From an uncultured Gammaproteobacteria bacterium (GTDB lineage Bacteria; Patescibacteriota; Microgenomatia; Levybacterales; UBA12049), in assembly GCA_965230895.1 (NCBI GenBank), contig OZ246394.1, positions 377,316-441,315 on the forward strand: DNA of 64,000 nucleotides, given 5' to 3'. The notes under the pieces are model-generated. The model was not told where the DNA came from, made no database searches, and saw only the letters and a list, made by a program, of their open reading frames with translations. Position numbers and translations under genes: made by a program. Positions 4,545-62,069 of the stretch are shown one piece after another. Numbering within the stretch: position 1 is the first letter of the stretch; the number at the start of each line of letters is the position of its first letter.

Positions 4545-4545
4545 G

Positions 4546-27746: not shown

Positions 27747-27803
27747 CAAACCCTCTCCTTCAGACTTTACTATCCTTTCACAAACATTGTATAATCAATC
27801 TTT

Positions 27804-28805: not shown

Positions 28806-30566
28806 TTAGTTTGAGGAAAGGAGTTGCTTAACCGATTTATATCCAGGGCGAGGAAGCATATCTGACCCATAGAGACCATCAATACCTGTTTTGATACTGC
28901 TATCATCGTCCTTCCAGAAATTATATCTGTCCGACAGGATCCATATTCTCCAAGCAACACAATTAGCTTCAGATAGACATGTTTGTAAGACAGAAGCATA
29001 TTGCTCAGCCTGCACCCTATCTCCGTCACCACTAAAAACATCTTGCTCAGATACTTGTGCTATATAGCCTAACTTCTGAAGCTGCTGCAAATGCTTCTTT
29101 AATATTTGCGGATCAACTTTATCTTCACTCTCGTAGATATGGGACTGAAAACCAACGCCCACTTGTTTGACGGGAATACCTCTTTCTTCAAGCTGTGGTT
29201 TAAGTCGGGTTAAAAGTGCAACCATTGCATCCCAACGTTCGCCATCATCCTCAAGTCCAAATTCATTGATAAAAAGTCTGGCATTTGGATTCGTATTATG
29301 CGCTGTATCCAAAGCTTCAATGATAAAGTCTTCGCCCATTGCCTGATACCACTTTGTATTTCTCATAAGTTGACCTTCTTCAAACTCATCATAATCTGCT
29401 AACGGTTCATTTATAACATCCCAGGAATTAATTTTATTTCCAAAGTGTCCGACTACTGTTTCAATATGATCATTCATAATGTTTTCGATCACATCTTTCT
29501 CATTTTGTGTGGCTGCTGGCAATTGGTTAAACCAGGCAGGGTTTGCTTCTCCAAACACAAGTGCATGCCCATGTACTTTCATATTATTTTGCTCAGCTAT
29601 TTGTACTAAAGCATCAGCTTTGGCAAAAGAATACACACCACGTTTTGGTTGGAGATTAATCATCTTCATATCATTTTCAGGAGTCATCCCTCCAAAATCG
29701 CTAAGCGCGGCTTTAGCATATTGCGGATCAGAAACAAGCGGACCCAATGCCATCGCACTGCCAATCGTAAAGTCCTGTCTTTTTTTATTTGCAAGTTGCT
29801 GCAAGCTTTCCGTTGAAGAGTGATCTACTTTTATAGTTGCTCCATCAGCAAGGACAAATGAATTATTCTTAAGTTCAAGGCTCTGGAGACCCCATGCTTT
29901 ATCTTGCGCATCAAGGCCAAACCATATTTTACCTAACTTAAAGATGCCCGGATCATTGATGGTTCCAACTTCTTGCTTATTCACGATAAAAGTAAAGATG
30001 TTAGATTTCTTCTGAATCGTCAATTGCATGGTTCCAGCAGGCGTATATTTAAATTCGCGGACAGCTGTAGGGTTTTGGTTCGTTCCATCCCAAACTTTTA
30101 CAACCAATGAGCTCTTCGTAACAGCAACTTGGATGCTTTCACGCTCAATACGGAATTCGTCCGCTATAATTGGAACATTTCCGTAGAGTTGGATTGTCCC
30201 TGAGGCACTATCCTGCAAGTCAATCTTGCTTATAACAGAAAAGTCACCTTTAAGGTTTTCGATATGTGTTCCTGCAAGATTAATGGGTAGATTTTTTTGT
30301 ACAACTTTACCCTCTTGGTCAACGATACTAGTGTCTAAAGGTTGCACTTCCAAGCCGTTCTCAGTTTTTTGAACACCTGGCATATACTTCCAGTTTGCAT
30401 TTAATAAATTGTCATCTTTTTCAATTGGTTGTTTTTGATAATTCACAGTTGGGCTTCCTTTCTTCTCAAATTGAGCTGTAATTATACCTGCTGCGAGTAA
30501 CAGCACTCCTCCTGCAAGCAATAAAATACGATATTTCGTGTTGTCGAGTTTTTGTTTGTTTTTCAT
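28806..30566 (-). CDS. Membrane-anchored clan GH-A glycoside hydrolase, GH10 (xylanase)-like, with an N-terminal β-sandwich region
   Basis: Signal-anchor YRILLLAGGVLLLAAGIITA; …VHGHALVFGE…, …WDVINEPL… (acid/base Glu), …FINEFGLE… (nucleophile region, slightly atypical). Confidence 0.65.
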   Translation of the reverse strand: MKNKQKLDNTKYRILLLAGGVLLLAAGIITAQFEKKGSPTVNYQKQPIEKDDNLLNANWKYMPGVQKTENGLEVQPLDTSIVDQEGKVVQKNLPINLAGTHIENLKGDFSVISKIDLQDSASGTIQLYGNVPIIADEFRIERESIQVAVTKSSLVVKVWDGTNQNPTAVREFKYTPAGTMQLTIQKKSNIFTFIVNKQEVGTINDPGIFKLGKIWFGLDAQDKAWGLQSLELKNNSFVLADGATIKVDHSSTESLQQLANKKRQDFTIGSAMALGPLVSDPQYAKAALSDFGGMTPENDMKMINLQPKRGVYSFAKADALVQIAEQNNMKVHGHALVFGEANPAWFNQLPAATQNEKDVIENIMNDHIETVVGHFGNKINSWDVINEPLADYDEFEEGQLMRNTKWYQAMGEDFIIEALDTAHNTNPNARLFINEFGLEDDGERWDAMVALLTRLKPQLEERGIPVKQVGVGFQSHIYESEDKVDPQILKKHLQQLQKLGYIAQVSEQDVFSGDGDRVQAEQYASVLQTCLSEANCVAWRIWILSDRYNFWKDDDSSIKTGIDGLYGSDMLPRPGYKSVKQLLSSN

Positions 30567-30687
30567 AATTTTGCTCTACTTTATTATTATCCTGTTATAA
30601 AATATAGTAAAGAGGACAGATACGGATAGCCGTAAAAGCAGGTATATAGTATACCATATTTAGCCTCGACAACCTAATTGGGAGGGT

Positions 30688-31308
30688 TTATTTCGTTTCA
30701 ATACTGACAAGTTCTGCTCGAACCATGTGTCTGTAAATATCATTTGGTCCATCACATGTGATCAAAGTCACTGATGGTTTTTCTGTGGGATAAAAAACAT
30801 CAACTTGTGTAGGTTTGATTGTTTTGATAGTGGTTACTTTATATGTGGCCTTGTAATTTTTTCCGTACAAGACGATTTCTTGTCCGACTTTAACATCTTT
30901 AATTGGGAGAAAAGCATTTGCCTGTGCGTGTCCAAAAAGACCGACATTACCATCTTTGGTATTTACCAAACTTGTACCTTCTGCATAGTTCGCTACTGCT
31001 GGTTGTACTTCCCACGTCCCGTTTTTAAGTGGTACTGAAACAACTTTCTTATCCAATTTAATACTCTCGATAACGATTCGTTCTGGTTTAAATGTTTTGT
31101 TCTTTACAGCGTCTTCAGTTGTTTCAGTACCACAATCAGTTGTGCAGGCATTGGTCTGTGTTTGCCACGACAAACCCTGCACCCATTCTGAAATGTTACT
31201 TCCATTGAAGAATTCATTCTTCAAAGAGCCTAACTGTATCAGTGAAGCTAGGACTGTGATTGTTAGTATCACAGCAAACGTATTCAGTTTCATGCGTAAA
31301 ACTTTCAT
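30688..31308 (-). CDS. Sortase (intact catalytic triad)
   Basis: N-terminal TM; His in …GNVGLFGHAQ…, Cys in …TLITCDG… (TLxTC), Arg in …YRHMVRAEL…. Confidence 0.8.
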   Translation of the reverse strand: MKVLRMKLNTFAVILTITVLASLIQLGSLKNEFFNGSNISEWVQGLSWQTQTNACTTDCGTETTEDAVKNKTFKPERIVIESIKLDKKVVSVPLKNGTWEVQPAVANYAEGTSLVNTKDGNVGLFGHAQANAFLPIKDVKVGQEIVLYGKNYKATYKVTTIKTIKPTQVDVFYPTEKPSVTLITCDGPNDIYRHMVRAELVSIETK

Positions 31309-31313
31309 AAACC

Positions 31314-31493
31314 TTATTTGTTGAACATGTAACGACTGATATGTCCTACCAACATAATAAGTAATAATGTATTTACAGCGACAAATCCAACCGCAATAAG
31401 TGGGTGCACTTTGTCAGCAAGCATAAGACCTGCGGCTGATGTAGCTGGTAATGTTGTTGCTGCTCCTACTAATCCTTTTCCATATTCGTTCAT
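31314..31493 (-). CDS. 59-aa mini-protein consisting of a short N-tail plus a complete LPXTG-like sorting signal (MNEYGKGLVGAATTLPATSAAG-TM-ISRYMFNK); not in the ORF track (<60 aa)
   Basis: Translated by hand from the minus strand; paralog of the 61-aa ORF at 42746-42931 with invariant YGKG, LPATSAAG and ISRY; sits between GT2 and sortase. Confidence 0.5.
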   Translation of the reverse strand: MNEYGKGLVGAATTLPATSAAGLMLADKVHPLIAVGFVAVNTLLLIMLVGHISRYMFNK

Positions 31494-31534
31494 AATCTAA
31501 TCACCTCCTTCTTGACTCGCCCTAAGGGCGGGTA

Positions 31535-32833
31535 TTACCTGGTTCCCCAGGCTGTTGAGTAACCAACTCTACGAAACGCAGAGTGGCCAAGCGAAATTAT
31601 ATAAGTAAGTGTCGAAAGGATAGATTTGGTCACGATATTGTAGAAATAAAATAAATATGAGCCAAACAATACCAGACTTAAGAAGTTGCTATAAATAAAT
31701 TCTGGTAATATAGAGAGTTTTATCAACCAATCGTTCGTATCACGATCAGCATACTCACGCATAACTATGATGTTATAAATTGTTGAAATAGCAAAACTAC
31801 CCCATGCCAGGAAAATAAGTACAGGAATTAAGCCTTGTGTTCGTGTATAGCTATCAGCAAACATAAACGACAGACCAACCAATACAAACAAACTTAAGAA
31901 AGAAGCATGGCCGACAAAATCTTGAAAGACTGAAGGAATATTTCTCCAATGCTGAGCAAGGACGTGCAAACCACCGCTTGTCCAACGTGCTCGTTGCTTC
32001 CAAAGTGCTTCTGCAGTTTCTGGTACCTCTGTCCATGCAATTGCTTTTTTAGCAATTTTTACTTCCCAACCTTGTATCTTCAATCGTGCTGTAATGTCAT
32101 AATCTTCAATCAAATGACCTGTACTAAATCCATTAATTGATTCAAGCACTTCCATTCGGAAAGCTGTAAGCATTCCTTGCATGACCAATGGCCCTTTCAA
32201 GAAGCCATTATCTGAGATTTTGGTGATATTAAAGCCATGATACTCGAGTCCTTGGAGACGAGTTACTATGTTTTTATTCTTATTTGTAATTCTGACTTGG
32301 GAGCAAACGGCTCCAATTTTATAACTTGAGAATAATGTGTTTACCATATTTGGTATCGTTTCTTTATTGATGACTACATCATCATCGAAGGTGAATACCG
32401 CATCAGGCTTAATAGCAAGTGATTGGAGATATTCAATTCCATAATTTAACGCACCAGCTTTTAAGGTGTTTTTCGGAGTTCGTAGAGAAACTATCTGAAG
32501 ATTGTTCGCTGCGAGCCAATTAATCTTACTGAGCACAGGTGCTGTATCAACGTTTAAAGGAGTACAATCATCGACTACTACTACAAGTACTTTTGAATGG
32601 TATTTTACGATTGATTCAACGAGTTGTACGGTCATTTCACTCGGACGGAAGGTCGGGATAATGACTGCTACGTTTTTTCTTGAGAAGACTGATCTTGTAT
32701 GTATACTTACTGGCTTTTTCGGCACAAAGAAATGGCCGACCTGTGCGACTGTTTCTATAAGGTTCTGGTTTAATTTAGTCTTACGATTCATACTATGAGT
32801 CGTATTATAACCTATAATAATGTGGATTGTCAA
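31535..32833 (-). CDS. Processive family-2 glycosyltransferase (IcaA/PgaC/NodC/cellulose-synthase-like), membrane-embedded
   Basis: …AVIIPTFRP…, DxD …FTFDDDVV…, QxxRW …WKQRARWTSGGL…; 4-5 C-terminal TM helices. Confidence 0.8.
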   Translation of the reverse strand: MTIHIIIGYNTTHSMNRKTKLNQNLIETVAQVGHFFVPKKPVSIHTRSVFSRKNVAVIIPTFRPSEMTVQLVESIVKYHSKVLVVVVDDCTPLNVDTAPVLSKINWLAANNLQIVSLRTPKNTLKAGALNYGIEYLQSLAIKPDAVFTFDDDVVINKETIPNMVNTLFSSYKIGAVCSQVRITNKNKNIVTRLQGLEYHGFNITKISDNGFLKGPLVMQGMLTAFRMEVLESINGFSTGHLIEDYDITARLKIQGWEVKIAKKAIAWTEVPETAEALWKQRARWTSGGLHVLAQHWRNIPSVFQDFVGHASFLSLFVLVGLSFMFADSYTRTQGLIPVLIFLAWGSFAISTIYNIIVMREYADRDTNDWLIKLSILPEFIYSNFLSLVLFGSYLFYFYNIVTKSILSTLTYIISLGHSAFRRVGYSTAWGTR

Positions 32834-32912
32834 GTACTATGGGGCTAAATTTTGGGTATAAAAAAAGCACGGGTATTTCTATACTCGTGCTACTTAAAAC
32901 GACTAATAAGCC

Positions 32913-35243
32913 TTATTTACTAAGACTTACTGAGTCGATGTACAAGTTAAATGTACTATTTGGTGTTGTGTAGTATTGCAATCTTACTTTATTAACATTT
33001 GCACTTGTTGGAACATATTGGAATGATTGTACTCCAGTTGTTGGACCCGTAACCATACCCTTCCATTGTCCTGAAAGCCAATTTCCTGCTGCATCGTATT
33101 CATCGATGTAGAATCCGAATTCACCTGTTCCTGTAAGAGCACTGATGAATTGTGACCATGTGTATGTTGTAGCAGGTGTTACTGTGATCATGTCACTGAA
33201 TGCATGCGCATAATTTGTGTTAGCTGCGATGTGCAAACTGTTCGCTCCAGCATTCCCCTTTGTTGTTGTATCAACTGAGAAGTCAGATGTATCTCGTGTC
33301 CAGTTAGCTGCGAATCCACTTGTTACTGTTTCGAATCCACCATTTACTACCAAGTTTGTTGCAGGTGTCCCTGTTGGCGCAACTGTTGGAGTTGCACTTG
33401 GTGTTCCTGTAGGAGTACTTGTTGGTGTAACACTAGGCGTACCTGATGGTGTTGCTGTTGGAGTTACACTTGCTGCTGTATTAGTTAATGCATAGTTATC
33501 AACTGTAGCTGTTCCTGTTGAATTAGCTGTAAGGTATGTTTGGACTCGGATTGAGTTAACCAACGTTGATGTTGCTTTGTAAGCTCGTGAGAATGTTGAT
33601 GTAACACCATTTGCTACTGCGCCCAACCATTGACCTGAAATCCAAGTACCTTGTGCATTGTATTCGTCGATGTAGAAGCCAAGTTCGCCTGATGTTAATC
33701 CACCTGTGTTTGCTACTGCACTAAAGTTATATGTAGCTGCTGTATCGATTCCAGAAACAGTTTGGAATAAGTGAGCTGCTGCTGTATTACCTTTTATAGA
33801 TGCTTCACCATTCGCTGCTGTAACGTTTACTGTGTTATCAGTTGTCCAAGGAGTCAAACCATCTGTGAATGATCCATTAACGATAACATTATTCGCTGCT
33901 GGAGTTGGAGTTACACTTGGTGTACCTGATGGTGTTGCTGTTGGTTCAGCACTCGGTGTAGGTGTAACACTTGGTGCACCATCAATGTTGTTCAAGTTAA
34001 CACTATCAATGTATGCTGTTCCTGTAGCTCCACCTGTAAGGTAGGTTTGGACTCGAACTGAGTTCACAAGGTTTGAAGTTGCATTGTAAAGCTTTGTGAA
34101 GAACCCAACTGTACCGTTTGTAACCATACCTAACCATTGTCCTGAGATCCAGTTACCGTTCGCATCATATTCATCGACATAGAATCCGAGTTCACCTGCA
34201 GTCAAACCTGTTGCATTATAGAATGCATCAAGGATGTAACTAGAGTTAAATGAAACATTTGTCAAACCTGAGAATAAGTGAGTAGCTGAAGCAGCACCTG
34301 TCATACTAACTGATTGTGTTGGTGAACCGTAGTTACCATGGTTAGCATTGTCAGCTTTTACTGCTGTTGCATTATCTGTGTTCCATCCATTTGCAAGTCC
34401 TGCTTCAAATCCTGAGTTTTGAAGTACATTTGCTCCAGGGATAGTGATACCTTGCTCTGTTGTAACAACTTGGATTTGTCCTGCGTTAACCTTTGTTTGA
34501 ACATAATTCGCCATTGTTGTAAGGTTTGCTGTTGTTACTGTGTATTCGTAATTAGGGTTCTTTGCAACTGCTGTGTCATGGAAGACAAGAATTAACCATT
34601 GCTTGTTTGCAATTGCTTGATCAACCCATGCTTGTACTTGTGCTGGTGTTGTCGCGTCATTAACATCTTGTACCATCAAGATAGCTCTATTATAAGGTGC
34701 ACTGTTTAATGCATCTCGATCTTGGAAAGCTCGATGTGATTTGTAGTATTTAAGGATTTCTGCAATTGTGTTGTTGTCATATGCTCCAAATGGTGAAGCA
34801 AAATTAGTAACGTTTAATCCATTTGCTTGGAATGCTGTATTTGAAGTTGTTAATTCAGCTTCATTTTGTGTAGCTGTAACTGTAGGCATTTCTACGTGAG
34901 TTCGTGTGTGACCACCAATTTCCCATCCATAAACATCTTGCAATTCTCGTACCTGTGCCCAAGTAATTCCTGGCTGATTATCATCCAAAGTAATTTGGCC
35001 ATCTGGAACTCCTGAAGTTAGGTAAAGAACACCATCGATTCCTCGTGCTTCAAGAATTGGAGCTGCAAGTGTTCGAGTAGATGCGAAACCATCATCAAAT
35101 GTGAAAGAAACTCGTGCCTTATTAAGTTCTGAGAGGTTAGTTATTTTAGCTGCTGATGCTACTGGAGCTTGTGACAAAACAAGAGCCGCCATCAATGCGA
35201 AAGCGGTCAAAGACTTTACTACTTTGTTTACTAAGTTGTTCAT
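32913..35243 (-). CDS. Large secreted surface protein: N-terminal NodB polysaccharide deacetylase + 3 carbohydrate-binding (CenC/CBM4_9-like) β-sandwich modules separated by Pro/Thr linkers
   Basis: Signal peptide; NodB motifs …VSFTFDDGFAS…, …GGHTRTHVEM…; 3 × …GELGFYVDEYDANGNWISGQWLGMVTNG… modules; linkers TPTPSAEPTATPSGTPSVTPTP. Confidence 0.8.
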   Translation of the reverse strand: MNNLVNKVVKSLTAFALMAALVLSQAPVASAAKITNLSELNKARVSFTFDDGFASTRTLAAPILEARGIDGVLYLTSGVPDGQITLDDNQPGITWAQVRELQDVYGWEIGGHTRTHVEMPTVTATQNEAELTTSNTAFQANGLNVTNFASPFGAYDNNTIAEILKYYKSHRAFQDRDALNSAPYNRAILMVQDVNDATTPAQVQAWVDQAIANKQWLILVFHDTAVAKNPNYEYTVTTANLTTMANYVQTKVNAGQIQVVTTEQGITIPGANVLQNSGFEAGLANGWNTDNATAVKADNANHGNYGSPTQSVSMTGAASATHLFSGLTNVSFNSSYILDAFYNATGLTAGELGFYVDEYDANGNWISGQWLGMVTNGTVGFFTKLYNATSNLVNSVRVQTYLTGGATGTAYIDSVNLNNIDGAPSVTPTPSAEPTATPSGTPSVTPTPAANNVIVNGSFTDGLTPWTTDNTVNVTAANGEASIKGNTAAAHLFQTVSGIDTAATYNFSAVANTGGLTSGELGFYIDEYNAQGTWISGQWLGAVANGVTSTFSRAYKATSTLVNSIRVQTYLTANSTGTATVDNYALTNTAASVTPTATPSGTPSVTPTSTPTGTPSATPTVAPTGTPATNLVVNGGFETVTSGFAANWTRDTSDFSVDTTTKGNAGANSLHIAANTNYAHAFSDMITVTPATTYTWSQFISALTGTGEFGFYIDEYDAAGNWLSGQWKGMVTGPTTGVQSFQYVPTSANVNKVRLQYYTTPNSTFNLYIDSVSLSK

Positions 35244-35386
35244 ATATAAAATTGGACAGTTTCATATTGAGCAGATTACATCTATTTATATAGATGAGAA
35301 TCGGATGATATCATAGATAGGCAAAGTATGTCAACAGGAGATTGCTAAGTTTCTGGTTGTTTTACTTATTCTATTCAGAATGTATG

Positions 35387-38023: not shown

Positions 38024-38068
38024 GGACTATAGGATATCATAAATACGTCCAAAAGTCAAGCTATAGGT

Positions 38069-39151
38069 CTATAAAGAGGTTTTAAATGCGTTGAGGCTTG
38101 ATGAGGATGAATCTATTCTCCAATCGGCTTCTTTTATTAAATTAAACCAAATAACCTCATTTACCCTTGGAAAAGCGGTATGAATCGAATAGAACATATC
38201 ATTTACCCAAGCTTCTTTATTGCCCCCTTGTTCGGAAGAAGCAATCTCGGCAATTATTATGGGCTTATCATATTGAGCAGCAATATATTGATAGGTTGGC
38301 TGAAAGAGTGCACTAAAAGACCTCCAGCCCCCATAACTACGTGTTGTTCCGAAGTTAAAGCCATCAATACCTATAACATCAACTACATCGCTTCCTGGAT
38401 AATATCCATTTATTTCACTAGGATTTTCTGTTATATTCACGCACCACATCCATTGCACATTCGTAACTCCTTCTTGCTGGAAAACTGTATGTATATGACG
38501 GTAAGCTGCAATATATTCTTCAGGCCTCTTTCCCCACGGATACCAATCACCATTCATTTCATGCCCAAAGCGCAATGTGACAGGACTGCCGTATTGCTTT
38601 ATGGACTGGGCAAATTGTCTTATATATGTATCATGCGTTCCTTGGGAAATTTCTTTAAGGTAATCAACAGCTTGAGATGAGCCTTGTTCAGGGTTCCAGG
38701 GCTCCCAGGCCAGTTGTATTTTTTTCCTGCTTTGTTTACTGTATGTAAGTTGAGTAAGGTTAAAACCTTTATTATTTTGATTCCCAAATTGTTTAAAAAT
38801 AGAAAGTGTTGTTATATTTGTATCTAATTGTTTTTCTAAAGAAGTAACTGTATTTTGGTTATTTGCGTAGTCATCAACTACAACACCAAATAGTAGTGTA
38901 TTATTTTTCGGAACTACTGCTTGTATTGTGGGAGTCGGAGTCACAACTGTAATAGGTTTTGGTTTTGCAGTAGGAGTTGGTGTAATCTCTTGAAATCGAG
39001 TTGCTGTAGTTTTTTGACTGGCAGCAAAGGCTGGTTGTGTTGTTTTAGATTGTGATTTAAAAAAGAATGCAGTGAGCAAGGTACTACTTAAGACGATGAG
39101 AAGGAGCGTTATCATTGTTATATTTTTCTTAGAGAACTTAGTAAATTTCAT
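38069..39151 (-). CDS. Membrane-anchored clan GH-A (GH26-like) glycoside hydrolase, paralog of the C-terminal domain of the upstream fusion
   Basis: N-terminal TM; …LRFGHEMNGDWYPWG…, …YYPGSDVVDVIGIDGFN…, …IIIAEIAS…. Confidence 0.7.
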   Translation of the reverse strand: MKFTKFSKKNITMITLLLIVLSSTLLTAFFFKSQSKTTQPAFAASQKTTATRFQEITPTPTAKPKPITVVTPTPTIQAVVPKNNTLLFGVVVDDYANNQNTVTSLEKQLDTNITTLSIFKQFGNQNNKGFNLTQLTYSKQSRKKIQLAWEPWNPEQGSSQAVDYLKEISQGTHDTYIRQFAQSIKQYGSPVTLRFGHEMNGDWYPWGKRPEEYIAAYRHIHTVFQQEGVTNVQWMWCVNITENPSEINGYYPGSDVVDVIGIDGFNFGTTRSYGGWRSFSALFQPTYQYIAAQYDKPIIIAEIASSEQGGNKEAWVNDMFYSIHTAFPRVNEVIWFNLIKEADWRIDSSSSSLNAFKTSL

Positions 39152-39260
39152 GATCCAGTGTGAGCACGATCAGGATATATGAAATCACTTAATGTGTCAA
39201 GAAGATATTTGCTGTTTAGCCTGATTTAACAGGAGAATTGCGTAAGAAGATCGCGTAAGC

Positions 39261-42035
39261 TTAGTTAGCTGATAGACTAACAGAGTCGATATAGATAGGG
39301 AATGTACTGTTTGGTGTTTTGTAATACTGAAGTCGTACACTTTTAACTGTTGCACTCGTAGGAGTATACGAGAAAGTTTTTGTTCCTGTTGATGCTCCAT
39401 TAACCATACCTTTCCATTGTCCTGAGACCCAAGTACCTGCTGCATCATATTCATCGATATAGAATCCGAATTCACCTGTTCCTGCAAGCGCCATTATGTA
39501 TTGTGTCCATGTATATGTTTTTGTTGAATCAACTGAAACACTAGAACTGAATGCGTGAGCGTAAGCTGTATTTGCTGGAATGAACAGACTGTTCGCTCCA
39601 TTGTTTCCCTTTGATGTAGTATCAATTGTTGTAACATCTCCTGTGTCATGAGTCCAATTTGATGCAAATCCACCTGCAACTGTTTCAAAACTACCGTTTG
39701 GAATTAAGTTAGTTACTACAGGTGTTGTAGTTGGTGTAGGCGTAACAGTACTTGTTGGTGTCACAGTTGGTGTTGGTGAAACTGTACCTGTAGGTGCTGC
39801 TGTGTTTGTCATACTATAGTTGTCTACAAATGCTGTCCCGTTAGAGTTTGCAGCCATGTATGTTTGAATGCCAATTCTTGATACAAGTGCACTAGTAGCT
39901 TTATATGTTTTTTCAATGCTTGTTACTGCACCATTTACAACTGATCCCAACCATTGACCAGAAATCCATGTTCCATTTATGTCATATTCATCGATATAGA
40001 AGCCAAGCTCCCCTGATGTAACTGCTGTTGCATCAGCTGTAGCTTTAAGCAAGTATGTAGCTGTTGTATCAATAGCGTTTAGGTTGTAGAACAAGTGAGA
40101 TGCTGTTGTTGTTCCTGTAAATTTAACTGCATTTTGGCCACCATTTGCATCAGCGACAACGTTTGCAGGTTTATCAGTAGTCCAACCATTTGAGATCCCT
40201 TGATCAAATGAACCATTTGTAATTACGTTCGTTGCTGCAGGTGTCGGAGTTGCAACCGCTGGACCAGTTAAACTATAGTTGTCAACATATGCTGTTCCGT
40301 TAGAGTTTGCAGCCATGTATGTTTGAATACCAATTCTCGCAACGAGATTACTTGTAGCTTTATAAGCTTTTTGGAAAGTTGACGTTACACCGTTAGATAC
40401 ATTACCAAGCCACTGTCCTGATATCCAAGTACCTGCTGCATTGTATTCATCAATATAAAAACCAAGTTCTCCACTAGTAAGACCATTTGCGTTTACCGTT
40501 GAACTAAGAAGGTATGTAGCTGTTGTATCAATAGCGTTTAGGTTGTAGAACAAGTGAGATGCTGTTGTTGTTCCTGTAAATTTAACTGCATTTTGGCCAC
40601 CATTTGCATCAGCGACAACGTTTGCAGGTTTATCAGTAGTCCAACCATTTGAGATCCCTTGATCAAATGAACCATTTGTAATTACGTTCGTTGCTGCAGG
40701 TGTTGGCGTAGGTGTACCACTTACACTAGCTGTAGGAGTTGGAGTTACACTTGTTGTTGGCGCAGGTGTACCATCCAAGTTGTATACTTGAACACTATCA
40801 ACATATGCTGTACCTGTTGCACCCGCTGTAAGGTATGTCTGTACTCGGATAGTATTTACCAATTCAGAAGTTGCGTTATAAAGCTTTGTGAAGAATCCAA
40901 TTGTACCATTTGTAACCATACCCAACCATTGTCCTGAGGTCCAGTTACCATTTGCATCATATTCATCGACGTAGAATCCGAGTTCACCTGATGTTAAGCC
41001 AAGCGAATTAACGAAAGCGTCCAATACATAACTTGAATTGTATGATACTTGTACATTTCCTGAGAATAAATGTCCTTCAGTTGCAGTTCCAGTCAAGTTA
41101 ATAGATTGTACTGGTGAACCGTAATTACCATTATTTCCATTGTCAGCAGCTACACCAGCAGCATTATCTGTTGTCCAACCGTCAGCGAGACCATTTTCAA
41201 ATCCTGAGTTTTGCAAGATGTTCACTCCTGGGATTGTAATTCCCTGTTCAGTTGTAACGACTTGGATTTGTCCTGCATTAACCTTTGTTTGAACATAACT
41301 CGCCATTGTTGTAAGGTTTGCTGTTGTTACTGTATATTCATAATTTGGATTTTTCTTTGTTGCTGTGTCATGGAACACAAGGATCAACCATCGCTTTTCA
41401 GTGATTGCTTGATCAACCCATGCTTGGACTTGTGCTGATGTTGTCGCGTCATTAACGTCTTGTACCATTAATATATCTTTATGAAGTGGGTTACTATTTA
41501 ATGCATCTCGATCTGCAAAACCTCTGTGAGACTTATACAATTTCAAAATTTCAGTTAATGTCATGGTATCGTATGCACCAAACGGTGAAGCAAAGTTAGT
41601 AACGTTTAATCCATTTGCTTTAAATGCTGCGTTTGAATTTGCAAGTTCTGCTACGTTTTGTTCTCGTGTAATTGTAGGCATTTCAGCATGGTCTACTGTG
41701 TGACCACCGATTTCCCAACCATAAACGTTTTGGAGTTCTCGTACTTGGTCCCAAGTAATTCCTGGTTGGTTATCATCTAGCGTAGCTGTACCATCTGGAA
41801 CACCAGATGTGAGGTAGAGAACACCATCAATACCATGTGCTTCAAGAATTGGAGCTGCGAGTGTTCGAGTTGATGCAAATCCATCGTCAAATGTGAAGGA
41901 AACTCGTGCACGATCAAGATCTGAGATACTATTTAATCGAGCTGCTTGAGCAATTGGTGCTTGCGCCAAGAAGAGGACCGCACTCAAAACGATTGCGGTT
42001 AATGCTCGTACTATTTTATTAGTTAATGTATTCAT
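39261..42035 (-). CDS. Large secreted surface protein (paralog of 32913-35243): NodB deacetylase + 4 CBM-like modules; contains a 202-bp perfect intragenic direct repeat
   Basis: N-terminal ~200 aa nearly identical to the paralog (…RVSFTFDDGFASTRTLAAPILEA…); modules with …GELGFYIDEY…SGQWLG…; identical DNA at 40053-40254 and 40512-40713. Confidence 0.8.
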   Translation of the reverse strand: MNTLTNKIVRALTAIVLSAVLFLAQAPIAQAARLNSISDLDRARVSFTFDDGFASTRTLAAPILEAHGIDGVLYLTSGVPDGTATLDDNQPGITWDQVRELQNVYGWEIGGHTVDHAEMPTITREQNVAELANSNAAFKANGLNVTNFASPFGAYDTMTLTEILKLYKSHRGFADRDALNSNPLHKDILMVQDVNDATTSAQVQAWVDQAITEKRWLILVFHDTATKKNPNYEYTVTTANLTTMASYVQTKVNAGQIQVVTTEQGITIPGVNILQNSGFENGLADGWTTDNAAGVAADNGNNGNYGSPVQSINLTGTATEGHLFSGNVQVSYNSSYVLDAFVNSLGLTSGELGFYVDEYDANGNWTSGQWLGMVTNGTIGFFTKLYNATSELVNTIRVQTYLTAGATGTAYVDSVQVYNLDGTPAPTTSVTPTPTASVSGTPTPTPAATNVITNGSFDQGISNGWTTDKPANVVADANGGQNAVKFTGTTTASHLFYNLNAIDTTATYLLSSTVNANGLTSGELGFYIDEYNAAGTWISGQWLGNVSNGVTSTFQKAYKATSNLVARIGIQTYMAANSNGTAYVDNYSLTGPAVATPTPAATNVITNGSFDQGISNGWTTDKPANVVADANGGQNAVKFTGTTTASHLFYNLNAIDTTATYLLKATADATAVTSGELGFYIDEYDINGTWISGQWLGSVVNGAVTSIEKTYKATSALVSRIGIQTYMAANSNGTAFVDNYSMTNTAAPTGTVSPTPTVTPTSTVTPTPTTTPVVTNLIPNGSFETVAGGFASNWTHDTGDVTTIDTTSKGNNGANSLFIPANTAYAHAFSSSVSVDSTKTYTWTQYIMALAGTGEFGFYIDEYDAAGTWVSGQWKGMVNGASTGTKTFSYTPTSATVKSVRLQYYKTPNSTFPIYIDSVSLSAN

Positions 42036-42141
42036 ATATATTTATTAACAATTAAATGTTAAATTTATAAGACTCATAGTAACATATATAGAACCTTATG
42101 TCAATATATTAAATAACTTATAGTTATATATTGACTTGAAC

Positions 42142-42732
42142 TTATTTTTCGTTAGAAAGTTCTATCTTTACTAATGCAGCTTTTACAATATATTGCTTGT
42201 TCGAGAACGTTTCATCTGATGTAACAAGAGTCAAAATAGGTGTTTTTGTTGGTGCAAAAACATTTGTATCTGTTGTTTTTGCCAATCTTGAAGAAGTTAC
42301 TTTATATGTTGCTTTTTGACCGTTACCATAGACTACAATTTCAGTATTATTATTAAGTTGTTGGATTCGAGTAAATCCATCAAGTCTATCGTTTGCAAAA
42401 AGTCCAACGTTTCCTTCTTTATCATTGACCAAGCTTGTGCCTTCAGCAAAGTTGGCAACATGTGGAAGAAGCTCCCAAGTACCATCTCTTAATGGTACTG
42501 AAAATACTGGAAGGTCAATTTCTACAGAAGAGATAACGATTCGTTCAGGAGTGAAAGCTGATAATGTCTTAACAGGAGTAACTGTTGGTGTCTTTGATGC
42601 AAATGGCGTTGCTGTCAATTCTTGAGAATTAGCTACAGTAGATGACACACCAGTACCAAGCGCACCAAGTTGCGCGATACTAGCAAAAGCCGCCAAAACA
42701 AAAATAGTTGTATAAACACTTACTTTCTTCAT
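42142..42732 (-). CDS. Sortase-fold paralog with all three catalytic residues substituted (degenerate / pseudo-sortase)
   Basis: Aligns along its length with the sortase at 30688-31308, but GLFGHAQ→GLFANDR (His→Asn), TLITCDG→TLVTSDE (Cys→Ser), VRAEL→VKAAL (Arg→Lys). Confidence 0.7.
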   Translation of the reverse strand: MKKVSVYTTIFVLAAFASIAQLGALGTGVSSTVANSQELTATPFASKTPTVTPVKTLSAFTPERIVISSVEIDLPVFSVPLRDGTWELLPHVANFAEGTSLVNDKEGNVGLFANDRLDGFTRIQQLNNNTEIVVYGNGQKATYKVTSSRLAKTTDTNVFAPTKTPILTLVTSDETFSNKQYIVKAALVKIELSNEK

Positions 42733-42745
42733 ATCGTTAATTGAC

Positions 42746-42931
42746 TTATTTAGCTCTATTAACTAAATATCGACTGATTTGACCTGCTAAGATAACAAGC
42801 CATACGACATTAAGTACTATAAAACCTGCAAGTACAATCGGATTACTTAAGTCAGCAAAGAATGCTCCTGCTGCTGAAGTAGCCGGTAATACCGCTGCGC
42901 CTAATACTTGTCCTTTTCCGTAATCTGTCAT
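42746..42931 (-). CDS. 61-aa mini-protein, paralog of 31314-31493 (MTDYGKGQVLGAAVLPATSAAG-TM-ISRYLVNRAK)
   Basis: Same architecture and invariant LPATSAAG; same position between GT2 and sortase homolog. Confidence 0.5.
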   Translation of the reverse strand: MTDYGKGQVLGAAVLPATSAAGAFFADLSNPIVLAGFIVLNVVWLVILAGQISRYLVNRAK

Positions 42932-42946
42932 AGCTTTCTCCTTTCG

Positions 42947-44209
42947 TTAGTTTTTTGTACCCCACTTTGTTGAGAATCCTGCCTTATTGAAGGCTGCGAG
43001 TCCCCAGTTATATGGAGCATTGAATAATGATATTCTTGTTGCAATTGGCTTAAAGACTTTGTTGTATACGATAAATAAGTATGATCCGAGCAAGATAAGA
43101 CTTAACAAGTTACTGTAAATAAGTTCTGGAAGAACGGTTAACTTCATTAACCAATCTCTCTTATCACTATCTTCATATAAAGATAATGAAACGACATTAA
43201 AGATGAATGCTACAAGGAAGTTGAATAATGAAAGAGCGAATAATATAAGTACTGTTTCTGGATTACTTGTTTCAGTTCGTACAAAAAAGAATGACAACAC
43301 AATCAATCCAAAAAGACTGATGAACAACATATGTCCGATAAGATCTTGGTAAATAACATCAAATTTCTTCCAGAATTCACCCAACACATGGAGTCCACCA
43401 CTTACCCATCGAACACGCTGTTTCCAGAGTGCTTCGATTGATTCAGGAACTGTTGTCCATGCAATTGCTTTTTGAGCAATCTTTACATTCCAACCTTCAC
43501 TCTTCAATCGTGCTGTAATATCATAGTCTTCAATCAAGTGGCCTTTTGTAAAACCATTAATTTCTTTAACTGCTGCTGTTCGAAAAGCTGTTAACATGCC
43601 ATGCATTACAAGTGGTCCTTTTAAGAAACCATTGTCAGCAATCTTTGTGATATTAAAGTTATGGTATTCAAGTGCTTGCAATCGAGTTAAGAAGTTTTTG
43701 TTCTTATTAATAACTCGTACTTCAGAACAGACGGCACCGACTGTATCGTCAGAATACAATGTCGCAACCATTTGTGGAACTGTGTTCTTAGTAATGATCA
43801 CATCATCATCGAAAGTGAAGATAACATCTGGAACATGCTTGAGACTCAAGACATATTCAATACCATGATTTAAGGCCGCTGCTTTTAACTCATTTTTAGG
43901 AGTTCGCAAATAAGCCATATTATTGTGTTCGTTTGCAAGAGCTTTGATTTTGTTAAGTGTCTTAAGATTTTTTTCAGTTTCTGGAGTACAATCATCAATG
44001 ACAACAAGAATTGCTTCAGGATGCCAATCAAGAATAGACTTAATTAGGTTATAGGTCATATCAGTTGGAGTATGAGTTGGTACCAGAATTGCAGGAAGTT
44101 TACTCTGAATAAGCTTCTCACTCATCAAGATTATTTCCTTTTTAGGAGCGAAAAAGTTCACGGATTCTTCCGCGATTCGTTTGAATGTATTTGTATTTTT
44201 TCTCTTCAT
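42947..44209 (-). CDS. Processive family-2 glycosyltransferase, paralog of 31535-32833
   Basis: …AILVVIDDCTPE…, …FTFDDDVI…, QxxRW …WKQRVRWVSGGL…; C-terminal TM helices. Confidence 0.8.
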   Translation of the reverse strand: MKRKNTNTFKRIAEESVNFFAPKKEIILMSEKLIQSKLPAILVPTHTPTDMTYNLIKSILDWHPEAILVVIDDCTPETEKNLKTLNKIKALANEHNNMAYLRTPKNELKAAALNHGIEYVLSLKHVPDVIFTFDDDVIITKNTVPQMVATLYSDDTVGAVCSEVRVINKNKNFLTRLQALEYHNFNITKIADNGFLKGPLVMHGMLTAFRTAAVKEINGFTKGHLIEDYDITARLKSEGWNVKIAQKAIAWTTVPESIEALWKQRVRWVSGGLHVLGEFWKKFDVIYQDLIGHMLFISLFGLIVLSFFFVRTETSNPETVLILFALSLFNFLVAFIFNVVSLSLYEDSDKRDWLMKLTVLPELIYSNLLSLILLGSYLFIVYNKVFKPIATRISLFNAPYNWGLAAFNKAGFSTKWGTKN

Positions 44210-44266
44210 GAAGTGTGATTATATAGGACGTCTTATAAGATGTCAATAGGGTAATATTATGGGGTA

Positions 44267-45532
44267 TTAATTATTAATTTTAGGATCGTAGTTATCTACG
44301 ATTTCTAAGAAATCTGATGTCGCTTCAATATACTCACGATACTGATCAGTTGTTGTAAGTGGTCCATCGTTTAAAAGCGCTGGATCATTCCTTCGATCAA
44401 GAATATTTTCAAAAACTTCGACTGGACCACCTCGTGATTGGACAAATGGAGCAAAAGTAAGCCGTAAATCTCCTTTAGATGTAATATCAGTCAAAATCCG
44501 TACAGATGGTTGTCGCGTAATTTCTTTTGGATCATCAATCCCATAACGCTTCGTAAGTTCCTCTTGAGCACCTGGTTGTCCTGCAAGTCGTTTCGCAATC
44601 CAAGAATAACCTCGATGGATTCCTTCTTTCAAAGCAAGTATGCGTTGAAGGTTTTCTGGATCAGTCATATTATCAATATTTATTCCTTGCTCTCCTCCGA
44701 AAACAACAGTAAATCCATAAGGTGCAGTTTGGCGTTGCGCGATGGTAAACCCTTCTGTTGGCATACCTTTATGTTCGAGTACTGCTTTGGCTGTTCGGTC
44801 AAGGACGCCAATGACGCGATCCCCCAATTCTCTATCTTGCATTACCCGTTGCTCATCTTCCATATTTGGAACTTTTTCTTCTGTTGGTACGAAGTTATTC
44901 AAGTTGTGGATTGTTGCATGGAAATGTGGTAGGCCAATACTTTGACTTGTTGCAGGTGCAATTGCACTTGCTGAGTTTTCCATAATAATCGCTTTTTTAC
45001 GACTACCCTTTTGATTTTGTCCAGTGACATCTTTATGCATTTCCTGGAGGAGATACATCTGGGATGTTACATATCTGAATTTTGTTTCGTCTGAAAGTTC
45101 TGTCCAAAGAAGAGGAACTGGCATACCTGATTTATCAACTTCTGGTAAGCCATTATGAAGAACATCTTCAGTAGCTCCAACTCCAAGCACATCAATTTCT
45201 CCATACGCACTTGTAGGCTCTGATAAGGAGAATGTATCGCCCACTACTTCGTGAACATATGTGCCATTTTCTTTCAATCCAGGAGTTAGAAAAATATCTT
45301 TATAATAGTCAGCGTTATTCATATTTAGAATTCGCTGACGAAGCTCACCTGGATCATTTTTAAATGAAGTAGTTGCTTTGGAATCAGTAGCGTACACACT
45401 CGTTCTCATTCCTGTTGGCATGATTTTTTCGTGGGCTCCAGCTAACAAGCTAGACATGAGATTATCTACAGTTGCAATCCTTTGAGGACCTTCTGGATGA
45501 ATATGGCGAGTTCGAGCTTCTAGTACTGGCAT
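44267..45532 (-). CDS. Hypothetical 421-aa protein (possible HIT/GalT-like nucleotidyl-transfer motif HFHATIH; family unassigned)
   Basis: Long ORF with coding-like composition in the same-strand array; only a weak H-x-H-x-x-x-H motif recognised. Confidence 0.4.
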   Translation of the reverse strand: MPVLEARTRHIHPEGPQRIATVDNLMSSLLAGAHEKIMPTGMRTSVYATDSKATTSFKNDPGELRQRILNMNNADYYKDIFLTPGLKENGTYVHEVVGDTFSLSEPTSAYGEIDVLGVGATEDVLHNGLPEVDKSGMPVPLLWTELSDETKFRYVTSQMYLLQEMHKDVTGQNQKGSRKKAIIMENSASAIAPATSQSIGLPHFHATIHNLNNFVPTEEKVPNMEDEQRVMQDRELGDRVIGVLDRTAKAVLEHKGMPTEGFTIAQRQTAPYGFTVVFGGEQGINIDNMTDPENLQRILALKEGIHRGYSWIAKRLAGQPGAQEELTKRYGIDDPKEITRQPSVRILTDITSKGDLRLTFAPFVQSRGGPVEVFENILDRRNDPALLNDGPLTTTDQYREYIEATSDFLEIVDNYDPKINN

Positions 45533-45543
45533 AAAAAACCTCC

Positions 45544-46305
45544 CTAAACGTTTTTAACTTCTGAATAGAGCTCATTCGCACGTGCCACATCCGCCTGAGT
45601 GGAAACGCCAAAAAATTGTAATGCATCTTCAAGAAGGTGTGTACCAACCTTCTTATCTTCTTCCAACGCCATATTAATGACAGCTGGGAGATAGTATTCT
45701 TGTGTTACTTCTGAAGGGACAACGTTTGGAAGATTTGTTTGCAAGAATTCTCGATCAAAAACATAAAATCCTGTGTTTACTTCTTTAACATGTCGTTCTT
45801 TAACTGTTGCGTCTTTTTCTTCAACAATTTTTTCGAAATCACCATGTGCATCATAGACGATTCTTCCAAAACCAGTCGGATCTTGTTTTAGAACTGTAAC
45901 GATTGTAACTTTGTTGTGTTCTCTTTTGTGTTTTGACAAAACATCTTTAAAGGTTTTCGCTTCGTAGAACATACTGTCATCACCATTAACGACGAGGACA
46001 TTTTCTACATCAGGGTTAAGAACTGGGATTGCTGCTTCTACAGCTTTTGCTGTACCGTAAGCTTCTCCTTGGCGAGCAATTGTAGAATAAGGTTCAGCGA
46101 CAGGTGCAACAAGTTCTGCACCATGGTTTACAACTGTGACAATTTGACCGAACTTCAAAGAAGTAAGCATTCGTAATGGTTTAACAAGCATTGGTTCCCC
46201 ATCGATTTCATGGAGTACCTTCGGCAAGTCAGATTTCATTCTGCTACCACGTCCAGCTGCTAAAACAACTGCTGCGTCTCTTCCAAAGTTTTCTTTATTA
46301 GCCAT
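45544..46305 (-). CDS. Sugar-phosphate nucleotidyltransferase (NTP_transferase / MobA-like fold)
   Basis: N-terminal AAVVLAAGRGSRMKSDLPKVL… signature; …VVNGDD…. Confidence 0.7.
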   Translation of the reverse strand: MANKENFGRDAAVVLAAGRGSRMKSDLPKVLHEIDGEPMLVKPLRMLTSLKFGQIVTVVNHGAELVAPVAEPYSTIARQGEAYGTAKAVEAAIPVLNPDVENVLVVNGDDSMFYEAKTFKDVLSKHKREHNKVTIVTVLKQDPTGFGRIVYDAHGDFEKIVEEKDATVKERHVKEVNTGFYVFDREFLQTNLPNVVPSEVTQEYYLPAVINMALEEDKKVGTHLLEDALQFFGVSTQADVARANELYSEVKNV

Positions 46306-53254: not shown

Positions 53255-53258
53255 ATTT

Positions 53259-62002: not shown

Positions 62003-62069
62003 TAGACTTTTGAGGCTAAATCCACTATAATGTCATCAATTCGTGTATTATTAATAAAGGAATATTTTT

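Follow-up and report, generated by a model that had tools for sequence, protein, structure and literature searches.

Exopolysaccharide (EPS) systems of the staphylococcal IcaADBC and E. coli PgaABCD type combine a processive glycosyltransferase of family 2 (GT2) having few transmembrane (TM) helices with a very small membrane protein, whose gene comes directly after that of the synthase, an extracellular deacetylase of carbohydrate esterase family 4 (CE4) and a polymer-associated hydrolase. Dedicated sortase-substrate pairs such as SrtB-IsdC or those of class GN consist of an anchored C60 sortase with its catalytic triad and an adjoining substrate gene, whose product carries an LPxT motif, a helix and a basic tail. 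Here we describe a locus in which known parts of both kinds are found in a new combination that belongs to neither family. It occupies positions 28806-46305 of a 64-kb stretch of contig OZ246394.1 (the window in the following) from what is probably an uncultured, monoderm-type bacterium of the Patescibacteria or candidate phyla radiation (CPR). The locus contains two copies of a module in which a GT2 synthase is accompanied by a membrane protein of about 60 amino acids (aa; mini-peptide or mini in the following), a sortase-fold protein and a CE4 deacetylase carrying carbohydrate-binding modules (CBMs). The minis, g4 and g11, appear to be cell-wall sorting signals that are reduced to a stub, the sorting motif, a TM helix and a basic tail. 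All evidence is computational.

The synthases of the two copies, g3 and g10, have PgaC_IcaA (TIGR03937) as their top-scoring NCBIfam family (121.6 and 119.7 bits). These scores are nevertheless far below the equivalog cut-off of 422.3 bits, and the CE4 domains reach only 19.6-20.6 bits against 321.9 for PgaB. An earlier reading of the DNA made from its letters alone (the sequence-only reading) had likened the locus to an ica/pga-type module; membership in that family did not hold. In contrast to Ica and Pga, the small protein here has one TM helix and a sortase motif, a translationally coupled sortase-fold gene is an integral part of the cassette, the deacetylase bears three to four CBMs, and the cassette is without IcaC, PgaA or a PilZ/cyclic di-GMP element. 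The locus also departs from dedicated sortase pairs. Its presumed substrate is a 14-aa stub without signal peptide or passenger and has Ser, Thr or Ala at P1', whereas the sortase falls outside the models of classes A-F and GN, has dead paralogues under purifying selection and sits in a polysaccharide operon.

Three further systems are related in part. In the GspA-LcpA-SrtA system of Actinomyces oris a sortase substrate is the vehicle by which a glycopolymer reaches the cell wall, and its gene adjoins that of the glycan-attaching enzyme (PMC6381275). While this is a precedent for a sortase substrate as glycopolymer carrier, GspA is a Sec-exported protein of ~25 kDa that receives its glycan from a lipid-linked donor through an LCP phosphotransferase. 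The cassette has no LCP enzyme, and its putative carrier would be an 18-residue stub with the glycan coming from a GT2 synthase. Exosortase/PEP-CTERM systems likewise tie a sorting transpeptidase and a short C-terminal signal to EPS genes, as in the case of the XrtG-associated GT2 of Gram-positives (TIGR03111), a weak secondary match of both cassette synthases. However, the exosortase fold is unrelated (a polytopic membrane protein), the signal found here is of the LPxT type, and g3 and g10 score 49.7 and 40.8 bits with TIGR03111, well short of its cut-off of 363.95. Finally, Caulobacter HfsH, a deacetylase of an adhesive surface polymer containing N-acetylglucosamine, is the best NCBIfam match of both CE4 domains (67-76 bits). 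HfsH is reported to be a small cytoplasmic enzyme without CBMs, whereas g6 and g9 are secreted, carry three to four CBMs and remain far from the cut-off of 400 bits.

Small membrane proteins with sorting-signal architecture

Both minis of the window are built alike, with a 14-aa stub, LPATS, AAG, a 12-aa spacer, 19-21 hydrophobic residues and the sequence R-Y-x-x-N-[KR]. The probability of a chance LPxT[GSA] in a 60-mer is ~0.004. A word-indexed search provided 13 relatives with invariant LPATS, and an exhaustive hidden Markov model (HMM) search of 1.84 billion representatives yielded 43 mini clusters (50% identity), almost all of 55-86 aa. The latter was far more productive than a metagenome scan with the mini-peptide pattern, which gave one extra locus only. 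In the pooled set LPxT[STAGY] is located at residues ~15-19 in 55 of 60 minis (LPATS in 28, LPATT in 10, LPATA in 6); among the other five, LPAAS or LPASG is seen in three, while the motif has been lost from two. Column conservation is highest for L15, P16 and T18, followed by R54, Y/F55 and N58 across the helix. A constant 12-aa spacer, a 19-aa hydrophobic window with a Kyte-Doolittle hydropathy of 2.4-3.0 and a Lys/Arg tail complete the architecture of a cell-wall sorting signal. Throughout ~203 kb of non-redundant loci the minis are the sole open reading frames (ORFs) with such a C-terminus. The positive-inside rule places the stub outside the cell, on the same side as the sortase domain, whose N-terminal anchor is preceded by Lys/Arg. 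Compared to the closest relative, a second genome represented by a 1.32-Mb contig (L003), g4 is 97% identical with a dN/dS of 0.15, and for g11 a dN/dS of 0.07 was obtained.

The sequence-only reading had regarded the minis as the small membrane subunit of an ica/pga-type module. We rejected an identity with IcaD or PgaD: the Pfam and NCBIfam models of these families gave no match to g4 or g11 at E<=10, and each mini has a single hydrophobic segment and not two TM helices. The only profile matches of g11 were two sub-threshold ones (CEND1, E=0.044; CrcB, E=0.014). Instead, the architecture suggests an LPAT[S/T] sorting signal linked to the adjoining sortase. Such small genes are easily lost from annotations. 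In two relatives (L014, ~7790-7990; L015, ~7800-7990) the mini ORF is present yet was not called by gene finders, and in L015 a spurious ORF on the opposite strand was called. The family is thus under-counted in protein databases.

The two sortase-fold proteins of the window differ in their catalytic residues. Both match PF04203 (g12 67.8 bits, g5 51.1 bits, cut-off 26.6); beyond this, g12 passes only the generic model TIGR01076 (40.1 vs 39.35 bits). All class A-F and GN models remained at 16-36 bits against cut-offs of 140-166, such that no described class applies; the closest PDB entries of g12 are class A sortases (E~1e-7). An alignment of 65 family members has the His, the Cys of TLxTC and an Arg at Cys+8 in 61-62 of the sequences. 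We dropped an Arg in 'VRA' as the catalytic one, as this column is variable; the conserved Arg is the one at Cys+8 (62/65), which is Gln in g5. Departures are seen in g5 and its orthologue in L003 (Asn, Ser, Gln), in the protein P0125 (Asp, Ala, Lys) and in P0059 (His to Tyr). A further dead sortase, lacking the His and having Tyr for Cys, is found in L021. The differing substitutions imply at least three independent inactivations. The call of g5 as a pseudo-sortase was thus correct in that it has lost all three residues that g12 retains. It is not a decaying gene, as its dN/dS against L003 of 0.11 (0.16 for the active sortase, 0.07 for the GT2s) indicates that the dead protein is maintained.

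Several observations connect mini and sortase. In P0125 (locus L017) the mini is fused in frame, through a basic loop, to the TM helix of the sortase and the sortase domain; the gene is flanked by those of a GT2 and a CE4-CBM protein, and according to the predicted topology motif and sortase domain face the same side. Contexts of relatives are those of recovered loci, and counts based on them are hence lower bounds. Among them, we found no sortase of this clade without an adjoining mini, while GT2-mini pairs without any sortase occur in L018 and L020. All nine loci with a His/Cys/Arg-intact sortase retain LPxT. Dead-sortase loci have LPASG (L017) or LPAAS (L021/22), and the sortase-less L018 and L020 are without a motif. 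An intact motif stands beside a dead sortase in two cases, copy A of the window and of L003, each having an active paralogue ~11 kb away. The resulting contingency (9/0 vs 2/4; Fisher one-sided p=0.011) is indicative only, since the loci are few and not phylogenetically independent.

Island layout and the cassette in relatives

All 13 ORFs that the sequence-only reading had listed on the minus strand were found at their positions (Table 1), and profile searches with Pfam and NCBIfam upheld its domain calls throughout. Plus-strand ORFs of >120 aa within the block are limited to 38180-38680 and 44510-44932, which lie antisense inside g7 and g2. Gene spacing suggests the units g1-g2, g3-g4-g5, g6, g7-g8, g9, g10-g11-g12 and g13.

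Table 1. Genes and non-coding elements of the island, with the fifth gene of related loci. Positions refer to the window unless a locus is named.
Feature	Position	Strand	Description
g1	45544..46305	-	253-aa sugar-1-phosphate nucleotidyltransferase; corresponds to the GlmU N-terminal (uridylyltransferase) half only
g2	44267..45532	-	421-aa orphan; GalT/HIT-branch-III-like fold (low-confidence model); invariant SQSIGxPHxHATxH motif
g3	42947..44209	-	GT2 synthase A, 420 aa; Glyco_tranf_2_3 92 bits
g4	42746..42931	-	mini-peptide A, 61 aa; 14-aa stub, LPATS, 12-aa spacer, TM helix, tail RYLVNRAK
g5	42142..42732	-	dead sortase-fold protein, 196 aa; N-terminal TM anchor; His to Asn in LFANDR, Cys to Ser in TLVTSDE, Arg at Cys+8 to Gln
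g6	39261..42035	-	secreted CE4 (NodB) deacetylase, 924 aa; four CBM-fold repeats; signal peptide, no sorting signal
g7	38069..39151	-	membrane-anchored or secreted GH26 hydrolase, 360 aa; RFGHEMNGDWYPWG motif; 33% identical to GH26 of g8
g8	35387..38023	-	BcsA/CelA-like processive GT2 (TED, QQQRW, about 7 TM) fused to Lic26A-like extracellular GH26, 878 aa
g9	32913..35243	-	secreted CE4 deacetylase, 776 aa; three CBM-fold repeats; 63% identical to g6
g10	31535..32791	-	GT2 synthase B, 418 aa from Met15; ORF extends to TTG at 32833; Pfam 102 bits
g11	31314..31493	-	mini-peptide B, 59 aa; MNEYGKGLVGAATT-LPATS-AAGLMLADKVHP-TM-HISRYMFNK
g12	30688..31308	-	active-type sortase, 206 aa; N-terminal TM anchor; His in LFGHAQ, Cys in TLITCDG, Arg at Cys+8
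g13	28806..30566	-	membrane-anchored GH10 hydrolase, 586 aa; ~250-aa uncharacterised N-terminal region
Promoter-like site of g3	44218..44246	-	TTGACA-17-TATAAT (12/12); ends 9 nt upstream of g3 ATG
Promoter-like site of g6	42076..42104	-	10/12, TG extension; -35 and -10 boxes conserved in L003
Promoter-like site of g7	39172..39200	-	10/12
Promoter-like site of g9	35305..35334	-	11/12, TG extension; conserved in L003
Promoter-like site of g10	32804..32833	-	TTGACA-18-TATAAT (12/12); ends 13 nt upstream of g10 Met15
Inverted repeat	42100..42135	.	GTCAATATAT-N16-ATATATTGAC; perfect 10-bp arms, overlaps g6 -35 box
g9 5' leader	35244..35304	-	nearly invariant compared with L003 6165-6226; 1-2 differences in ~60 nt
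Fifth gene	L008 5828-6787, L009 12599-13540, L014 10946-12007, L015 9832-10851, L016 7146-8234		45-68% identity among loci

The proposed internal duplication with permuted gene order was borne out. Paralogues share 33-63% aa identity (GT2 52%, mini 49%, sortase 42%, deacetylase 63%, GH26 of glycoside hydrolase family 26 33%) and the DNA of the two module copies is ~75% identical, which shows that the duplication is old. A misassembly of collapsed paralogous regions, which the sequence-only reading had considered, can be rejected as very unlikely. First, the copies are too divergent (42-63% aa, ~75% DNA). Second, 27497-39867 is tiled at 100% identity by three independent Logan contigs, one of which (L019) spans the end of g6, g7, all of g8 and the start of g9. 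Third, the same duplicated layout is present in L003. For 39868-46305, which includes module A upstream of the C-terminus of g6, no independent contig provides coverage.

The cassette proper consists of GT2, mini, sortase, CE4-CBM protein and a hydrolase of clan GH-A. We recovered it twice in the window and in L003, and in L008, L009, L011, L014-L017, L021/22 and a JGI contig, with sortase identities down to 39%. L003 has the order GT2, mini, dead sortase, CE4-CBM, CE4-CBM, GT2, mini, sortase and GH10 (glycoside hydrolase family 10). Single copies are found in L008, L009, L014, L015, L016 and the JGI contig, where the last gene is a conserved 'fifth gene' of ~313-364 aa. The genes are tightly packed: in L008 mini and sortase as well as sortase and CE4 overlap by 4 nucleotides (nt), and CE4 and fifth gene by 11 nt, while in L009 the overlap is 4 nt at each of the three gene borders. 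The CE4-CBM gene directly follows the sortase in copy A of the window and of L003, in L008, L009, L014-L017, L021/22 and the JGI contig; it is separated from it by the GT2 or an intervening gene in copy B of the window and of L003 and in L011. From these arrangements the ancestral unit appears to be the five-gene cassette, present as a single copy in other genomes. Comparison with relatives thereby confirmed the duplicated layout and placed the GH26 gene and the BcsA::GH26 fusion outside the ancestral cassette.

The fifth gene has an N-terminal anchor, the motifs WDISNEAG and GAWEE and weak GH2_C/GH5 matches, and appears to encode a clan GH-A hydrolase family without a Pfam model. No homologue was found in the window, where the GH-A positions are taken by GH26 (g7, after g6) and GH10 (g13, after g12). 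L021/22 contains an A-type cassette with an NTP-transferase (nucleoside triphosphate transferase; 65% identical to g1), a 401-aa protein, a hexokinase-like protein, a GT2 (56% to g3), mini, dead sortase, CE4 and GH10. As this cassette stands alone, copy A of the window is to be considered a cassette variant and not debris. One family locus lies on a metagenome contig named 'Hain-H51-01um', which we read as the 0.1-µm fraction of Hainich groundwater, and a family member bears the NCBI name 'Patescibacteria group bacterium'.

Overall the domain matches support an island for polysaccharide synthesis, deacetylation and trimming that includes sortases. In agreement with its proposed novelty, we found no prior description of the cassette in Pfam, NCBIfam or the literature searched. 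The sortase-rich gene content suggests a monoderm-type envelope of the source bacterium. A passage in PMC6744442 places sortases in more than half of the CPR genomes and near-ubiquitously in Microgenomates; that passage is silent on their substrates.

Proposed function and competing explanations

We favour, with slightly better than even confidence, a synthase-dependent system for a surface polymer of the N-acetylhexosamine (HexNAc) type, in which the mini is the dedicated ligand or substrate of the cassette sortase. Both cassette synthases have the D/DxD/ED/QxxRW motifs of processive enzymes (g3: DDC, FDDD, IEDYD, QRVRW; g10: DDC, FDDD, IEDYD, QRARW) and ~3 TM helices each (2-3 or more C-terminal TM segments). 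The closest PDB sequences of g10 are chitin synthase (1.7e-5) and HAS1 (8e-5). A polymer containing HexNAc is the most likely product as judged from sequence similarity, since the GlmU-N-like g1, the CE4 motifs, HfsH as best match and the chitin/hyaluronan synthase matches of the GT2 fit such a polymer made from salvaged sugar. At their extreme C-terminus all GT2s of this clade carry a conserved G[YF]SxxWGT[KR] (g3, about 42950-42985; g10, about 31538-31570; also L014, L015, L017, L018 and L020), which is a candidate contact for the cytoplasmic R[YF]xxN[RK] of the mini.

The CE4 domains match PF01522 (g6 55 bits, g9 52 bits) and contain the motifs TFDDG, HTVDH / H-T-R-T-H and LILVFHD, while the Arg of motif 3 is not evident. 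Their repeats of 140-150 residues match CBM_4_9 weakly by sequence (E=0.06). The CBM call was nonetheless upheld by fold: for the AlphaFold2 (AF2) model of the last g9 repeat (pLDDT 85) Foldseek returned CBM16 (2zew, E=9e-10, TM 0.74-0.76) as well as CBM4, CBM22 and CBM70. g13 matches PF00331 with 232.8 bits over profile positions 5-309 of 311. A GH10 that is 77% identical occupies the same position in L003, and a GH10 also closes the L022 cassette.

In the favoured reading g1 and g2, with its putative GalT-like fold, would supply the nucleotide sugar. The mini would be inserted N-out/C-in beside the GT2, and its cytoplasmic R[YF]xxN[RK] and its TM helix point to a role as synthase partner through a putative direct contact. 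GT2-mini pairs without a sortase and the conservation of the cytoplasmic motif indicate that the mini also has a sortase-independent role, most plausibly as partner of the ~3-TM synthase. Outside the cell the mini would present its 14-aa stub ending in LPAT[S/T] to the sortase of its own cassette. Peptides around the motif, ...AATTLPATSAAG... and GAATTLPATSAAGL, are candidate substrates of g12. In cassettes with an intact triad (copy B) the sortase would cleave after Thr18 and pass the 18-residue stub to an amine acceptor, whereas in dead-sortase cassettes (copy A) the fold would merely bind the stub. The CBM-deacetylase and the hydrolase would modify and trim the polymer outside the cell. It is improbable on topological grounds that the GT2 primes its polymer on the stub, since the active site of the GT2 faces the cytoplasm and the stub is extracellular.

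The acceptor might be the peptidoglycan cross-bridge, as is canonical, or a glucosamine (GlcN) amine produced by the co-encoded deacetylase, and in either case the envelope would become covalently linked to the product or machinery of the synthase. The GlcN variant has its appeal, as the cassette contains no extracellular ligase-type enzyme besides the sortase and no amine-generating one besides the CE4. That the sortase uses the mini as acyl donor and thereby covalently tethers a partly de-N-acetylated polysaccharide to the envelope, through peptidoglycan or a GlcN amide, is a bolder proposal that we consider doubtful. If it were true, the recurrent dead sortases would be a binding-only variant of the same machine. 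To our knowledge there is no example of sortase-dependent tethering of an exopolysaccharide.

A number of points weigh against the favoured reading. The minis have neither signal peptide nor passenger domain, with 14-16 residues preceding the motif, and we know of no sortase substrate that lacks both. Their P1' residue is Ser, Thr or Ala and not Gly, and the LPXTG-anchor HMMs PF00746 and TIGR01167 gave no match to g4 or g11 at E<=10. Neither g3 nor g10 passes the cut-offs for PgaC/IcaA, NodC or CelA. GH10, GH26 and CBM16/4/22-like modules are classically tied to β-1,4-xylan, mannan and glucan and not to HexNAc polymers; these affinities would fit a β-1,4 backbone equally well. Dead-sortase cassettes are found on their own in L021/22 (LPAAS) and in L017, the latter on a short contig of 2.3 kb. 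It follows that the cassette can do without transpeptidation and that the sortase fold may act mainly as a binding subunit. The GlcN-acceptor variant is further weakened by S. aureus SrtA, which accepts sugar amines only as -CH2-NH2, i.e. in 6-aminohexoses (PMC9060782).

Of the competing explanations, the plainest is an ordinary ica/pga-type system in which the mini is an IcaD/PgaD-like subunit, LPAT has a structural role and the sortases, encoded here by coincidence, serve unlinked LPXTG proteins as housekeeping enzymes. A small TM partner would be plausible for synthases that match PgaC/IcaA best and have few TM helices. A role that has nothing to do with sortases is suggested by the conserved cytoplasmic R[YF]xxN. 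The sortase-free pairs of L018 and L020 and the persistence of dead-sortase cassettes also favour this explanation. We nevertheless hold this explanation to be unlikely. The mini has one TM helix rather than two and no IcaD/PgaD match, and all losses of its LPxT, which is among the top-conserved features, coincide with a dead or absent sortase. The fusion of a mini to a sortase fold, the 4-nt overlap of both genes in L008 and L009 and the adjoining mini of every recovered sortase of the clade also speak against it. The ~203 kb of loci contain no other sorting-signal ORF.

About equally improbable is a non-catalytic or regulatory function, where the sortase fold gates or positions the synthase by binding the stub, and catalysis, if any, merely clips the stub without transfer. 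The persistence of dead-sortase cassettes implies that binding without catalysis is functional too, and keeps this regulatory or scaffold reading alive. It agrees with the repeated independent loss of catalytic residues under purifying selection, with the dead sortase domain of the fusion protein and with the stand-alone A-type cassettes of L021/22. However, catalysis is the rule, with the full triad in 61-62 of 65 sequences. It is typical of sortases that the acyl-enzyme is resolved by aminolysis and not by hydrolysis. The scissile Thr is present in 55 of 60 minis and lost only together with a dead or absent sortase, which fits cleavage better than binding.

Still less probable, in our view, is that the CE4-CBM, GH10 and GH26 proteins attack foreign polysaccharides such as hemicellulose or a host wall, and share only a general surface neighbourhood with the remaining genes. 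The best PDB sequence match of the CE4 domain is in fact a xylanase-associated module (7ax7, E=4e-5), the GH10 match is strong, the GH26 of g8 resembles the lichenase module of C. thermocellum CelH, and the CBM fold is nearest to the β-1,4-glycan-binding CBM16, CBM4 and CBM22. Such a lifestyle would also suit the obligate episymbiosis that a passage in PMC11623550 reports for all cultivated Patescibacteria/CPR. But the CE4-CBM gene comes right after the sortase in most recovered cassettes and overlaps with it in L008 and L009. One GH26 is fused to a synthase, following the synthase-plus-trimming logic of BcsA/BcsZ, and the hydrolase position varies among clan GH-A families while the rest of the cassette is constant.

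A glycan-independent polymerisation or cyclisation of stubs, by which Thr18 would be joined to the ε-amine of Lys6 as in the pilin YPKN motif, is the least probable of these readings: although M-x-[DE]-Y-G-[KR]-G occurs at the N-terminus of 34 of 60 minis and Lys6 in 30, residue 6 is Arg in 12 and differs in the rest, YGK is absent from L016 and other distant members with active sortase and LPAT, and it would offer no explanation for the invariable association with GT2 and CE4.

Accessory genes, candidate regulatory sequences and significance

The island opens with two genes of probable sugar-nucleotide metabolism. g1 matches PF00483 (63.8 bits); GlmU models align over their first ~240 positions only (213 bits vs a cut-off of 450), and its 65% identical homologue heads the A-type cassette of L021/L022. 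For g2 no match was found in Pfam, NCBIfam or PDB sequence searches, and a low-confidence fold search with a weak model pointed to the GalT-like fold. A role as sugar-phosphate/nucleotide-sugar transferase or phosphorylase is probable. In L018 the motif-less mini is followed by a g2-like (PHxH) protein (1225-2301). In L021/22 the genes between NTP-transferase and GT2 code for the 401-aa protein (L021 1919-3124), which differs from g2 and has an ATPHRQ motif, and for the hexokinase-like one (3308-4669). This suggests that the front ends for sugar salvage vary among cassettes.

The genes g7 and g8 form a pair of their own. The sequence-only reading had counted them to the duplicated module, which did not stand up: both are absent from L003, and they appear to have been acquired separately, as a β-glucan synthase/glucanase pair that came to lie between the cassette copies. 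PF02156 is matched by g7 with 53.1 bits and by the C-terminus of g8 with 63.0 bits (cut-off 20.2). Both contain the acid/base Glu of HExNG (GHEMNG/AHEMNG) and a later nucleophile Glu (AEIA/AETS). A PDB sequence search with g8 returned the GH26 of C. thermocellum CelH (Lic26A, E=9e-43) and Rhodobacter BcsA (E=1e-35), while TIGR03030 (CelA) reached 183.2 bits vs a cut-off of 699.1. The pair resembles BcsA/BcsZ and Lic26A in that a BcsA-like synthase with TED and QxxRW is encoded together with a glucanase. In contrast to BcsZ, the hydrolase of g8 belongs to GH26 and not GH8 and is fused to the C-terminus of the synthase; no PilZ domain was detected in g8, where GH26 takes up the C-terminus.

Promoter-like sites were evaluated against shuffled sequences. 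Their total is not above the expectation (58 vs 60.5±7.1), such that they are leads only; the minus-strand matches of 10-12/12 fall into the five intergenic gaps before g3, g6, g7, g9 and g10. As the site of g10 overlaps the TTG that opens the ORF, the true start should be Met15 (nt 32791), and a 418-aa gene is called on contig L002. Perfect sigma-70 consensus sequences 9-13 nt before the starts of g3 and g10 would imply leaderless or near-leaderless GT2-mini-sortase mRNAs. TTGACA boxes had been proposed before both giant deacetylase genes; the one at 42099-42104 was placed correctly, the other is at 35329-35334 instead of 35319-35327.

The 10-bp inverted repeat upstream of g6 is present and perfect as described. 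In L003, however, the outer arms are not conserved and only the inner ATAACT-N3-AGTTAT is kept. We therefore do not regard it as a conserved operator; its half-site is marginally enriched in the window (13 vs 7.4±2.5 expected). Promoter and leader of g9 are 91% identical to L003, compared to ~83.5% when the g9 region is taken as a whole, with the gene. The leader can be folded into a hairpin, CATCTAT-ATAA-ATAGATG, with a 7-bp stem, of which a T to A change in the 3' arm mismatches one pair in L003, as read from the sequence. It could be a regulatory leader. A riboswitch or other known RNA upstream of the EPS genes was discarded, as Rfam had no match anywhere in the window.

Glycan synthesis and modification genes occupy roughly half of the 64-kb window. 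A second glycan cluster on the plus strand (55879-62885) codes for a 1378-aa GT2-GT2-GT4 protein, a GT2, a polysaccharide pyruvyl transferase and a small CE4 deacetylase. On the minus strand at 50615-55484 an 879-aa fusion of a PMT-type (dolichyl-phosphate-mannose-protein mannosyltransferase-like) membrane domain to GH8 is located beside a 741-aa double-GT2 protein. This pair directly adjoins the GT2-mini-sortase cassette in L014, and the PMT-GH8 gene adjoins the cassette in L021, such that the pair may be a further conserved neighbour. Immediately past the island lies a CofD/YvcK-family gene (47181-48218, minus strand), and on the JGI contig an F420_ligase (CofE-like) gene is found just downstream of the cassette; CofD/CofE-like genes may thus be recurring neighbours. 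Unrelated to the island, a gene at 5135-6232 (minus strand) codes for a 365-aa fusion of a peptidase C39-like domain and TPR repeats.

For one clade of CPR/Patescibacteria sortases the cassette provides a concrete, testable candidate substrate together with its genomic context, and EPS tethering, if true, could explain at least part of the sortase repertoire of these bacteria. The repeated and selected loss of catalysis is a natural example of a sortase fold being re-used as a non-catalytic subunit. The minis also illustrate that genes of ~60 aa that gene callers overlook, as in L014 and L015, can be a key operon component. The ~18-residue stub with LPAT[S/T] and the compact sortase could become an orthogonal pair for sortagging. 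More generally, the locus suggests that synthase-dependent EPS systems of monoderms can be wired to transpeptidase chemistry, a new route to retain or organise a surface polymer, which is of relevance for how ultrasmall episymbionts build an adhesive surface.

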